A DNA stretch of 64,000 nucleotides from Candidatus Aenigmatarchaeota archaeon (GCA_046539325.1 JBKHHD010000002.1:32001-96000); one strand, 5' to 3'; numbered from the stretch's first letter, positions 24,810 to 62,443 are shown. Notes: generated from the letters alone by a model not told the origin. A program made the numbers and translations.

Positions 24810-25018
24810 GGGCCCGTGGTCTAATGGCAATGCAGAACCGTGTTCCGATTTACGGTTTGCACCGGAATGACGTCGCCCTTGCAAGGCGAAGACTGTGGGT
24901 TCAAAAGAGACCACTTTGGAATGAAAACACTTTACTGAAAACGGAGTTTTCGTAAAGATCCAAGCTTCGTTTGAAATATTTTCCAAAGGGTTTTCTGGAA
25001 TTCCCACCGGGTCCACCA
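24810..25018 (+). tRNA. tRNA-Ala(TGC) with two non-canonical introns (21/22: 24830-24867; 59/60: 24906-25001), encoded CCA
   Basis: GGGCCCG/CGGGTCC acceptor; TCGCC-CTTGCAA-GGCGA. BHB-like junctions (TTCA/TGGA with AAA and ATT bulges) restore TTCAAAT. Confidence 0.88.
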
Positions 25019-25210: not shown

Positions 25211-25290
25211 AAGGGACGATGAATTGAGTTTTGTGAACACCCTTTGATCCCGAGAGGGAGATGATAGTAAGACGATCACAAGAGTCCCTT
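25211..25290 (+). ncRNA. Two-guide box C/D sRNA in the 16S-23S spacer, predicted targets 23S U2552 and U1920
   Basis: AAGGGAC/GTCCCTT terminal stem; C ATGAATT, D' TTGA, C' ATGATAG, D AAGA. Guides are complementary over 11 nt to 28002-28012 and 27367-27377. Confidence 0.8.
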
Positions 25291-25391: not shown

Positions 25392-28347
<2,956 letters not shown>

Positions 28348-31194: not shown

Positions 31195-32144
31195 GAAAGG
31201 TCGCTGTTCTCTGGGATGAAAGGTATATTTCTGAGGATGAAGTTCTCTTTGAAGACGAGAAGCTGAAGAAGACTATGGAATACTTCTGCAAACAAGGAGA
31301 AAGAAAAGGGCTGAAGGTCTACGTTTCGCACTTTTCTTCCTACGACAAAGGTAAGCTTGAACAGGCCTATACTTTTGATGGTCAGTGGAAAGAGGTAAAA
31401 AACATAGAGATAGATCTGGTCTTTGACAAGTTCTACTTCAACGAAGAGACGAAGGAGCTGAAGTACAGGATTGATGAAGAGGTAGGTATATTCAACCAGC
31501 CCGAGTTCGAGGAGTTCTGCAAGGACAAGTTCAAAGTCTACTGCACCTTCGCTGGTTACGTGCCCAAGACTGTCAGGGCAAATAAAAACGACCTCGATAA
31601 ACTTCTCGACGAGTTGATAACGGAAAATATAGTGGTGAAACCACGCTTCGGATCTGGAGGTGAGTCCGTTAAGATCGTGTCTAAGGACAAGGTTTCAAAA
31701 GCTCTGGAAGGCTTTGACGACGAAGAAATAAAGGAAGGTAATGTACTTCTACAGGAGTTCGTAGACTCCTCAAGAGGCATTCCATCCCTCGATGTAAACG
31801 GAGTCCATGATCTGCGAATTGTACTTGTAGACGGAAAGCCCTCCTATTCCTTTGTAAGGACTCCTGAAAGGGGAAAAATAAGCAACGTGAGCAGAGGCGG
31901 AAACATGGAAACTGTTTCCCTGGAAAACATCCCTGAGAAAACAATGGACGTGGTAAAAGAAATCGACAAAGTGATGTCAGATTACGATGACCGGATTTAC
32001 TCCATAGACTTCCTGTTCAGTGAAAGTGGGGAACCTTTCGTAGTGGAACTCAATTCAAAGCCCGGGATAAAGTTCAACGGAGAAGAAGTTACAAAGAGGA
32101 AGAAGAAGTTCATCCAGGATATAATTCAAGCACTGAGTTCCTAG
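31191..32144 (+). CDS. ATP-grasp peptide ligase (RimK/YheCD-like)
   Basis: DK, VKPRFGSGG, QEFVD, DLR, SNVSRGG, IDF, ELNSKPG. Confidence 0.85.
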   Translation: MRKVAVLWDERYISEDEVLFEDEKLKKTMEYFCKQGERKGLKVYVSHFSSYDKGKLEQAYTFDGQWKEVKNIEIDLVFDKFYFNEETKELKYRIDEEVGIFNQPEFEEFCKDKFKVYCTFAGYVPKTVRANKNDLDKLLDELITENIVVKPRFGSGGESVKIVSKDKVSKALEGFDDEEIKEGNVLLQEFVDSSRGIPSLDVNGVHDLRIVLVDGKPSYSFVRTPERGKISNVSRGGNMETVSLENIPEKTMDVVKEIDKVMSDYDDRIYSIDFLFSESGEPFVVELNSKPGIKFNGEEVTKRKKKFIQDIIQALSS

Positions 32145-56295: not shown

Positions 56296-56472
56296 ATGTC
56301 TTCCCCCGGAAACGTGGAGGAAATGATGGAAGTACTCGCCTGTCCAAAGTGCAAAGGCGACGTAAAGCTTAATAAAAAGGAAAACAAGATAGTTTGCCAC
56401 GACTGCCGGCTCAGGTTTTCCGTCGAAGACGGCATACCAAATATGCTGTTGGATGAAGCGGAAAGCTTTTGA
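56296..56472 (+). CDS. trm112: Trm112 family protein
   Basis: LACPKCKG...C..C...F.VEDGIPNML. Confidence 0.88.
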   Translation: MSSPGNVEEMMEVLACPKCKGDVKLNKKENKIVCHDCRLRFSVEDGIPNMLLDEAESF

Positions 56473-56478
56473 ACGGAG

Positions 56479-56679
56479 GCCGGGGTAGCGAAGCCAGGTC
56501 CAACGCGCCGGATTTGAGAACGGATCTATTGACGAGAGGATGATATAACTGTTTCAAGAGATCCGGTGGGCCGCGTAAGGTCCTGTATCTGTGGAAGTCC
56601 ACGTGGGTTCAAAAGAGAACGCTTTGGAAGTGAAAACACCTTTTCCAAAGGGTTTCTGAAAGTCCCACCCCCGGCGCCA
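56479..56679 (+). tRNA. tRNA-Ser(TGA) with three introns (37/38: 56519-56560; variable arm: 56577-56596; 59/60: 56614-56662), encoded CCA
   Basis: GCCGGGG/CCCCGGC acceptor; three BHB motifs (TTTG/CAAG, CCGC/GTGG, TTCA/TGAA) whose removal gives a normal cloverleaf. Confidence 0.9.
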
Positions 56680-56697
56680 CATAAAAAAGGTGAAAAA

Positions 56698-57168
56698 ATG
56701 GTTGAAGAAAGGAAAAACATATTAAGAATTTTCAGGACGGACATTCCCGGAGACTGGAAAATAGGTGAAGGTCTGAGACAGCTAAAGGGTGTTAGCTTTT
56801 CAACAAGCAAGCCCATACTGAAAAAAGCAGATGTAGACCCTACCAAGGCCGCAGGGGATATAACTGATGAGGAAAAAGAATCTATAAAGGAAGTTATAAA
56901 GTCAGGACAGATCCCCTCGTACCTACTCAACAGAAGGAAGGATCCAGAAATAGGAGAAGATAGAATGCTTACCTCAAACGACCTGGAAATTCAGGAGAGA
57001 CAGGATATAGAGGATATGAAGAAGCTCGGCAGCTACAGAGGAATGCGTCACAGACATGGACTTCCGGTGAGAGGTCAGAAGACACAGTCCAGCTTCAGAG
57101 GAGACAGCTCTGTCGGTGTAGCTACAGCTGAAATAAAGGCAGAAAAATCAGGGGAAGAAGGTGAATAA
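56698..57168 (+). CDS. rps13: 30S protein uS13
   Basis: P.YLLNRRKD, YRG.RH..GLPVRGQ.T; SD AGGTGA. Confidence 0.96.
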   Translation: MVEERKNILRIFRTDIPGDWKIGEGLRQLKGVSFSTSKPILKKADVDPTKAAGDITDEEKESIKEVIKSGQIPSYLLNRRKDPEIGEDRMLTSNDLEIQERQDIEDMKKLGSYRGMRHRHGLPVRGQKTQSSFRGDSSVGVATAEIKAEKSGEEGE

Positions 57169-58820: not shown

Positions 58821-58962
58821 CGGGGGTAACCAAGCGGTCAAGGTAAAGATACGACTAAAGGTGCAGGACTTAAGCTCTCAGCTTAAGTATTGAGGCCCAT
58901 TGGGCGATGATAAGAAATCCTGTGGCTTAGTGCCTTCGTCGGTTCGAATCCGGCCCCCCGCA
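58820..58962 (+). tRNA. tRNA-Leu(TAA) with introns at 21/22 (58842-58858) and 37/38 (58875-58916)
   Basis: GCGGGGG/CCCCCGC acceptor; BHBs GGTC/GACT and CTTA/TAAG; long variable arm. Confidence 0.9.
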
Positions 58963-62323: not shown

Positions 62324-62443
62324 GGGTCCGTAGCTCAGCCTGGCAGAGCACTGGGCTTTTAACTTAATATGTTAAAAGAGCTAGACGTTATGTCGATGAT
62401 GAAAGAAACCCAGGAGTCGCGGGTTCAAATCCCGTCGGACCCA
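62324..62443 (+). tRNA. tRNA-Lys(TTT) with 37/38 intron (62362-62407)
   Basis: GGGTCCG/CGGACCC acceptor; CTGGG-CTTTTA|A-CCCAG; BHB CTTT/AAAG. Confidence 0.92.

Follow-up and report, generated by a model that had tools for sequence, protein, structure and literature searches.

A candidate single-K-turn guide for 2'-O-methylation of U39 in a 37/38 intron of tRNA-Ser(UGA) from a DPANN archaeon

Background

Canonical box C/D sRNAs have two K-turns, with guides of approximately 12 nt between the boxes, and the usual archaeal guide duplex is 10–12 pairs long. Artificial half-mer box C/D RNAs, with one K-turn and one guide on Nop5-fibrillarin, are used in structural and biochemical work. Competition between a guide fold and a splicing fold is known for pre-tRNA-Trp.

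The closest described system is the pre-tRNA-Trp intron of Euryarchaeota (Haloferax volcanii; Pyrococcus sR50), which is a box C/D guide for Cm34 and Um39 (PMC4090602, PMC7994747, PMC6313347). Reviews call it the unique self-guiding tRNA intron (PMC4090602), and in the section cited here Um39/Cm39 is listed for tRNA-Trp only (PMC6313347). The elongator tRNA-Met of Nanoarchaeum equitans has a stable 66-nt intron RNA that was proposed to be a C/D box sRNA; according to the cited part of that report, tRNA-Trp alone was known before this case (Randau 2012, PMC3491384). Pyrococcus also has free C/D guides that address nucleotide 34 in tRNA-Leu(CAA), Leu(UAA), Met and Trp (PMC7994747). A full-text literature search, with most subscription journals outside its reach, found no guide encoded by an intron of tRNA-Ser, Thr, Tyr, Gln or Leu.

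Results

The tRNA-Ser(UGA) gene and its introns

The window, i.e., the whole stretch of DNA that was analysed, is 64,000 nt long and represents positions 32001–96000 of contig C2 of an archaeal genome (G000; 715 kb, 10 contigs, 45% G+C, rated 91% complete). It holds an rRNA operon, an RNase P RNA and tRNAs. A search for sequencing runs listed six, none of them recorded as RNA. The positions of the features discussed are listed in Table 1.

Neither ARAGORN nor Rfam reports a tRNA in the raw sequence at 56479–56679. ARAGORN names tRNA-Ser(tga) only after removal of all three introns, and removal of two gives no call. Three good motifs from a bulge-helix-bulge scan place the splice junctions at 56518/56561, 56576/56597 and 56613/56663. 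In intron 1, positions 56513–56516 form the central helix with 56555–56558, flanked by 3-nt bulges, and the outer helix has 7 pairs. Removal of intron 3 restores a standard T-loop in the ARAGORN model. The three introns of this gene are protein-spliced. With G1 at 56479, the anticodon U34 G35 A36 is at 56515–56517, A38 is at 56561 and U39 is at 56562; this numbering follows from the bulge-helix-bulge scan, which gives the exon ends 56518/56561 with a 4-bp central helix, and from the ARAGORN call on the intron-less sequence. The locus has no Rfam family match at the gathering score, and there is none below E = 1 within 56440–56720.

The segment 56603–56669, which comprises the T-arm and parts of the 59/60 intron, is approximately 90% identical to window positions 24895–25008 (locus L020). 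Part of the match is the T-arm common to both, and paralogy of the 59/60 intron with this segment is possible.

Table 1. Positions of the features discussed, in window coordinates unless a contig is named. Guide, box and target assignments are predictions.
Feature	Position	Strand	Basis
tRNA-Ser(UGA) gene, encoded CCA, three introns	56479–56679	+	hand parse; ARAGORN after intron removal
Intron 1, canonical 37/38, 42 nt, bears the guide module	56519–56560	+	bulge-helix-bulge scan
Antisense (guide) element CGGATCT; counting upstream from the box, A56524 is fifth	56521–56527	+	sequence, register script
D'-like box TTGA, non-bulged K-turn strand	56529–56532	+	sequence
Minimal C-stem: C-G pair closing GNRA tetraloop (GAGA)	56533–56538	+	sequence
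C'-like strand: 3-nt bulge GAT (56539–56541), sheared GA (56542–56543), then T, A	56539–56546	+	sequence
Central splicing helix, 3' strand; partner is nucleotides 32–35	56555–56558	+	bulge-helix-bulge scan
Target strand AGATCCG: last two intron bases and A38–G42; U39 is the predicted 2'-O-methylation site	56559–56565	+	complementarity, register
Intron 2, variable arm, 20 nt (alternative boundary 56578–56595)	56577–56596	+	bulge-helix-bulge scan; ARAGORN requires removal
Intron 3, T-loop 59/60, 49 nt	56614–56662	+	canonical motif, helices of 5, 4, 4 pairs
tRNA-Leu(UAA) 37/38 intron module: guide, TTGA (58890–58893), hairpin, GATGATAA; fifth base pairs with U34 (58871)	58880–58913	+	9 pairs, no G-U
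16S-23S spacer module: 10-nt guide, one base, TTGA (25244–25247), 4-bp stem with GAGA loop, GAT, GA	25233–25267	+	motif scan
23S target of spacer module; T28006 pairs with the fifth base	28003–28012	+	perfect 10-nt match
Members of the K-turn-less intron family	C2:6816–6987, C2:111178–111305, C6:2890–3037, C6:3691–3868, C8:7380–7514		

A guide module in the 37/38 intron

All sequence elements of intron 1 that were named in the original prediction are in place. The antisense element is the exact complement of the target strand, giving a duplex of 7 pairs with no G-U, and one unpaired base, A56528, lies between this 7-mer and TTGA. When the register is determined by script, A56524 pairs with T56562, which puts U39 opposite the fifth base upstream of the box as predicted.

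Downstream of TTGA, the C56533-G56538 pair closes the GAGA tetraloop to give a C-stem of one pair, followed by the sequence ATGATAT (56540–56546). In a K-turn parse, G56542 and A56543 could form tandem sheared pairs with A56532 and G56531, U56544 is opposite U56530, and A56545 is paired with U56529, so that the T and A of the C'-like strand stand opposite both T residues of TTGA. TTGA, the C(GAGA)G cap, the 3-nt bulge and the GA together represent a predicted K-turn of the box C'/D' type.

The intron has the internal C'/D' K-turn/K-loop motif, with TTGA in place of CUGA. The antisense element is directly upstream of the D/D' box and the target is opposite the fifth base, in a duplex of only 7–8 pairs. 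The element is in a 37/38 intron and is complementary to its own anticodon arm, where only position 39 is addressed. There is no C-like box (RUGAUGA) upstream of the guide and no D-like box (CUGA) near the 3' end of the intron, and in place of the bipartite symmetry of two guides with approximately 12-nt spacing between boxes, the intron has a single guide and a single K-turn.

Conservation among relatives

The tRNA-Ser(UGA) locus is found in all seven other genomes of the genus and in the one other genome of the family that was searched. The guide is conserved in these relatives: guide and xTGA box are kept in 9/9 family genomes, and a manual parse of the alignment finds the K-turn in 9/9 also. 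The box is TTGA in eight of the nine orthologues and ATGA in G008. Closing stems vary. The C(GNRA)G cap is present in 7/9 (GAGA in three, GAAA in three, GTGA in one), and G005 and G008 have much longer inserts with a 3-bp closing stem, then the 3-nt bulge and GA by the same kind of parse. The stretch of intron 3' of the K-turn varies in both length and sequence. A C or U at the equivalent of position 56520 lengthens the duplex to 8 pairs in 8/9 of the relatives.

Across the nine orthologues, 79/81 cells of the guide duplex are paired. There is one double change, C-G to U-A in G001, where a guide base pairs with the final nucleotide of the intron; in the splicing fold this nucleotide has no partner. 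Covariation in the guide duplex is thin, in that this single double change gives a value also found in 60/500 column shuffles. The splicing fold is paired in 81/81 cells with no double change, and its central helix (4 pairs in nine sequences) in 36/36. From these counts the orthologues display strong conservation with little covariation, and because the guide pairs with a conserved tRNA stem, conservation alone does not separate a guide from a mimic of that stem.

The same module is present on six metagenome contigs, which add one new intron variant and no guide variant. A strict module pattern has matches in 6/371 genomes of the class, all of them in the same genus, with none in the reversed control; this pattern is too specific to be informative on other lineages.

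G012, a genome from the same order but a different family, has a Ser(UGA) 37/38 intron of approximately 84 nt in which the box C/D layout is more complete (locus L010, contig C96, reverse strand, approximately 1270–1530). By a manual parse, the internal guide of this intron matches, in fifth-base register, the sequence of the 16S decoding site. When a decoding-site guide of this kind was sought in G000, hits were no commoner than in the reversed control. The 42-nt intron looks like the reduced end of a series that includes longer forms of the G012 type.

Related modules in other tRNA introns

Approximately 19 anticodon-loop introns of the genome were read, with tRNA identities parsed by hand; the inventory is incomplete because ARAGORN mis-calls genes with multiple introns. 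Eight introns have TTGA with a closing hairpin and GAUGA, one (Lys-UUU) is degenerate and ten have no module. In 8/8 intron modules, as determined by script, host nucleotide 34 or 39 is the partner of the fifth base 5' of TTGA. The nucleotide addressed is U39 in Ser-UGA, Ser-CGA and Thr-UGU, C39 in Tyr, C34 in Trp and Met, and U34 in Gln-UUG and Leu-UAA. The duplexes have 7–10 pairs with 0–2 G-U, and exactly one unpaired base beside the box in six of the eight. GATGA, i.e., bulge plus GA, is common to all eight and to a further module in the rRNA spacer described below. In seven introns the order is guide, TTGA, hairpin and C'-like strand; in Tyr it is C-like box, 12-nt guide and TTGA. Each of the four distinct anticodon stems (Ser-UGA, Ser-CGA, Thr-UGU, Tyr) is matched by its own guide. 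tRNA-Ser(GGA), with a C31-G39 pair, provides an internal contrast: its anticodon-loop intron of 13–14 nt has no module. These paralogues in the same genome are the strongest evidence for the predicted guide function.

The original prediction had placed three introns at position 34 or 39. The third of these, Lys(UUU) at 62324–62443, does not fit: it has a good C-like element (GATGATGA) and an 8-nt antisense to its own anticodon loop, but the box is degenerate with no clear D' box, and the predicted target could be U33, U34 or U35. For these reasons, i.e., degenerate box and ambiguous register, it is kept outside all module counts. The original prediction also took TTGA/ATGATA as a compensated version of CTGA/ATGATG. 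Compensation is seen only against the textbook consensus; within the genome, T is opposite A in all eight intron modules and in the spacer module, and the Ser-CGA orthologue in G003 has a CTGA box with the partner strand unchanged.

The Ser-CGA module is kept in all seven assembled family orthologues, with five different closing hairpins. Contiguous guide pairs number 7, 4, 8, 6, 8, 6 and 6. The value of 4 is from G001, where the guide has two mismatches, so the antisense element is not always maintained. The Thr-UGU module is kept in 6/6 family orthologues.

Three observations on other introns are added here. ARAGORN mis-calls the segment 58820–58962 as Leu(aag) with an intron at 32; a hand parse instead gives tRNA-Leu(UAA), with an intron at 37/38 and an apparent extra insertion in the D-arm region. 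The tRNA-Trp intron (C1:116084–116240, reverse strand) has one clear C34 module and, next to a small hairpin and a GTGACA word, another antisense stretch with potential pairing around U39; this stretch has no convincing K-turn and was left uncounted as a ninth intron module. A second intron family, which has no K-turn, shares an A/T-rich hairpin and a common 3' motif, and its members interrupt several tRNA genes, either at 37/38 or within a D-loop. This suggests one intron that has spread among tRNA genes.

The target positions also bear on a pseudouridine guide. H/ACA guides, including archaeal H/ACA RNAs, also use a K-turn or K-loop bound by L7Ae, and U39 is a common site of pseudouridine; the intron might represent an H/ACA-like guide for pseudouridine 39, and in several relatives an ACA triplet follows the K-turn. 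In the predicted structure, however, U39 is within a continuous duplex, whereas a two-sided pocket would leave it unpaired; there is no ACA in the 3' portion of the G000 intron, and C34 and C39, which are targets of the same module type, cannot become pseudouridine. An H/ACA-like function is extremely improbable.

The modules also differ in how well they would fit a mature tRNA. The active guide might be the excised Ser(UGA) intron, linear or circular, working in trans on a target other than its own precursor, either mature tRNA-Ser or a different RNA. As the original prediction had noted, the 7-mer is complementary to the mature tRNA (A36–G42) as well in this genome. The tRNA-Trp intron RNP is reported to be trans-acting (PMC7994747, PMC4090602), and the internal guide of the longer G012 intron fits 16S rRNA. 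However, the duplexes of the sister modules run into intron bases and are shorter on mature tRNA: Ser-CGA has 5 contiguous pairs in place of 7, and Tyr loses an internal pair. The compensatory change in G001 restores a pair with an intron base, and no stretch of at least 8 nt in 16S, 23S or 5S rRNA matches the Ser(UGA) guide in the right register. Action on a mature or a foreign RNA is quite unlikely.

Chance controls

The loose box motif is common, with 153 hits on both strands of the 715-kb genome, and perfect 7-mers occur somewhere within ±90 nt in 2/56 mismatched combinations of guide and tRNA. The motif alone and the 7-mer alone are therefore weak evidence. The improbable part is the register. 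For the Ser-UGA guide, 143 of 200000 shuffles of its own 12 bases reach a 7-pair duplex in the exact register. Over all modules, between 99 and 827 of 200000 such shuffles per module give a duplex of at least 7 pairs, with no more than 1 G-U, on the target nucleotide seen in the genome. With the register kept and the guides permuted over the eight tRNAs, each guide forms 7–10 pairs on its own tRNA and 6 or fewer on the others, with the sole exception of one combination of 9 pairs, of which 7 are G-U. Genome-wide scans for self-targeting K-turns under loose rules gave 189, 465 and 122 hits; they are too noisy for statistics and were useful only to spot the Ser(CGA), Gln(UUG) and spacer modules.

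The complementarity could also be a relic or a coincidence, i.e., the 5' part of the intron may be a decayed duplicate of the 5' half of the anticodon arm, with boxes that arose by chance. The start of the intron does resemble the exon, with a stem strand and TTGA beside U33 and the UGA anticodon, and the abundance of the loose motif fits as well. Against this, TTGA is the box in all eight intron modules whatever the anticodon, on which ground an origin of TTGA as an exon duplicate was rejected. The anticodon-loop guides (Met, Gln, Trp) are antisense sequences and not copies, and the K-turn is kept through changes in closing stem and loop while neighbouring intron sequence drifts. A relic or coincidence is very improbable.

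A module in the 16S-23S rRNA spacer

The spacer module has the same type of layout and its guide matches 23S rRNA (Table 1). T28006 aligns with the first loop U of helix 92 in the E. coli 23S gene, position 2553 of the 2905-nt annotation. If a one-base offset to the conventional 2904-nt numbering is assumed, T28006 is the equivalent of U2552. The A-loop is described as always modified at the equivalents of U2552 and/or G2553 (PMC7994747). The module is kept in G001 and G006, the two relatives with a matching spacer, where the stem is compensated and the loop is changed from GAGA to GCAA. This predicted module is a positive control for the module type, in that its register falls on a known modification site and no tRNA splicing is involved.

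Protein genes and other guide RNAs

Genes for fibrillarin and Nop5 are adjacent at C2:22464–23733. The Nop5 protein has the archaeal N-terminal domain and the Nop domain. The L7Ae gene is at C1:74075–74344. The original prediction of a half-size box C/D-type module whose fifth base selects U39 is thus supported by conservation in 9/9 genomes, by seven more introns, by the spacer copy and by the RNP genes.

The FtsJ family holds protein-only enzymes for U2552 and for tRNA positions 32/34. No gene of this family (PF01728) was found in the genome, and one is present in 14/14 control genomes; at 91% completeness the absence is suggestive only. The modules described here cover the usual sites of the family, 23S U2552 and tRNA position 34.

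A crude regex scan for canonical two-box sRNAs gave hits mostly in coding regions, and a good-looking one (C3:87372–87456) is in apparent coding sequence. A stricter but still crude two-box scan that required rRNA complementarity gave one weak candidate in the genome, and absence of such RNAs is not implied by either scan.

Competing folds and a proposed mechanism

The predicted energy of the anticodon arm with intron 1 is -15.7 kcal/mol for the guide-duplex fold and -8.9 kcal/mol for the splicing fold, and the minimum-energy fold of the whole gene contains the guide duplex. Based on these values, the naked precursor should be in the guide fold.

The Ser(UGA) 37/38 intron is probably a guide with one K-turn that directs 2'-O-methylation of U39 in the pre-tRNA. 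From the anatomy, conservation and register of the module and the protein genes of the genome, we infer the following sequence of events. TTGA and the GAUGAUA strand would form tandem sheared G-A pairs capped by the C(GNRA)G mini-stem. L7Ae would bind the kink and recruit Nop5-fibrillarin. The 7–8 bases immediately 5' of TTGA would open the anticodon stem by base-pairing with its 3' side and with the final two nucleotides of the intron. U39 would then be opposite the fifth base from the box, and its 2'-OH would be methylated by fibrillarin. Since the guide duplex and the bulge-helix-bulge fold are mutually exclusive, methylation would come first, followed by the refolding that permits the endonuclease cut. 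Action in cis on its own precursor is plausible; it could equally be that one pre-tRNA, or an excised intron, acts on another pre-tRNA.

The two folds may instead constitute a switch without methylation. L7Ae, or the RNA alone, would keep the pre-tRNA in an unspliceable fold and so time or proof-read splicing, or would stabilise the excised, possibly circular, intron. The guide duplex does compete with both the splicing helix and the anticodon stem, and its predicted advantage in stability is 6.8 kcal/mol; there is one K-turn only, the duplex is short, and both folds are equally conserved in the pair counts (79/81 and 81/81 cells). No fixed register would be required of a switch, yet in every one of the eight intron modules the fifth base falls at 34 or 39, and that of the spacer copy is on U2552, where no tRNA is spliced. 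In addition, the hosts of the position-34 modules include Trp, Met and Leu(UAA), which are tRNAs that are guide-methylated at 34 in Pyrococcus. A switch of this kind is unlikely, and methylation guided by the intron is the preferred interpretation.

Discussion

The weak points of the guide interpretation are the single K-turn, the duplex of 7–8 pairs, the variant TTGA box, the thin covariation and the decayed Ser-CGA guide in G001. A broader proposal is held more tentatively, as possible though short of probable. For key ribose methylations this DPANN lineage may have replaced free two-kink guides and FtsJ-type methylases by single-K-turn guides carried in precursors, i.e., in the introns of eight or more tRNAs, directed at position 34 (Trp, Met, Leu, Gln) or position 39 (two Ser, Thr, Tyr), and in the pre-rRNA spacer (U2552). 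If this is true, a half RNP with one kink is a natural and sufficient form of the box C/D enzyme, and the upkeep of guides is a selective reason to retain tRNA introns.

Confirmation of the guide function would provide a functional reason for many of the introns in DPANN tRNA genes, would show that a half C/D RNP works in vivo, and would establish Nm39 sites, newly predicted here, in Ser, Thr and Tyr. A 42-nt intron and three proteins would then represent a compact natural system for the ordering of a guide fold and a splicing fold. The organism is uncultivated. On sequence evidence, the principle of the Trp intron appears here in a one-kink form within a single reduced genome: in tRNA-Ser, across a whole group of tRNAs and in the rRNA spacer.

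Free archaeal C/D sRNAs are similar in the proteins expected, L7Ae, Nop5 and fibrillarin, in the register rule, and in position-34 targets that overlap. Half-mer C/D RNAs are laboratory constructs, whereas the half-size form here would be a natural and conserved state. As in the N. equitans tRNA-Met, a C/D-like element is found in a non-Trp tRNA intron of a DPANN archaeon, and the Met module here points at C34. Unlike that case, where one intron is concerned and the cited part of the report names no target nucleotide (PMC3491384), the modules here are in at least eight tRNAs and address position 39 in Ser, Thr and Tyr. The Trp intron is the nearest parallel in that the guide is in the 37/38 intron of its own substrate, follows the fifth-base rule, has targets at 34/39, and forms a duplex that is incompatible with the splicing fold. 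The Ser(UGA) intron differs from it in its tRNA-Ser host, in having a single internal K-turn of C'/D' type with no terminal C/D pair, in having one putative guide and not two, and in its length of 42 nt, its TTGA box and its duplex of 7–8 pairs.
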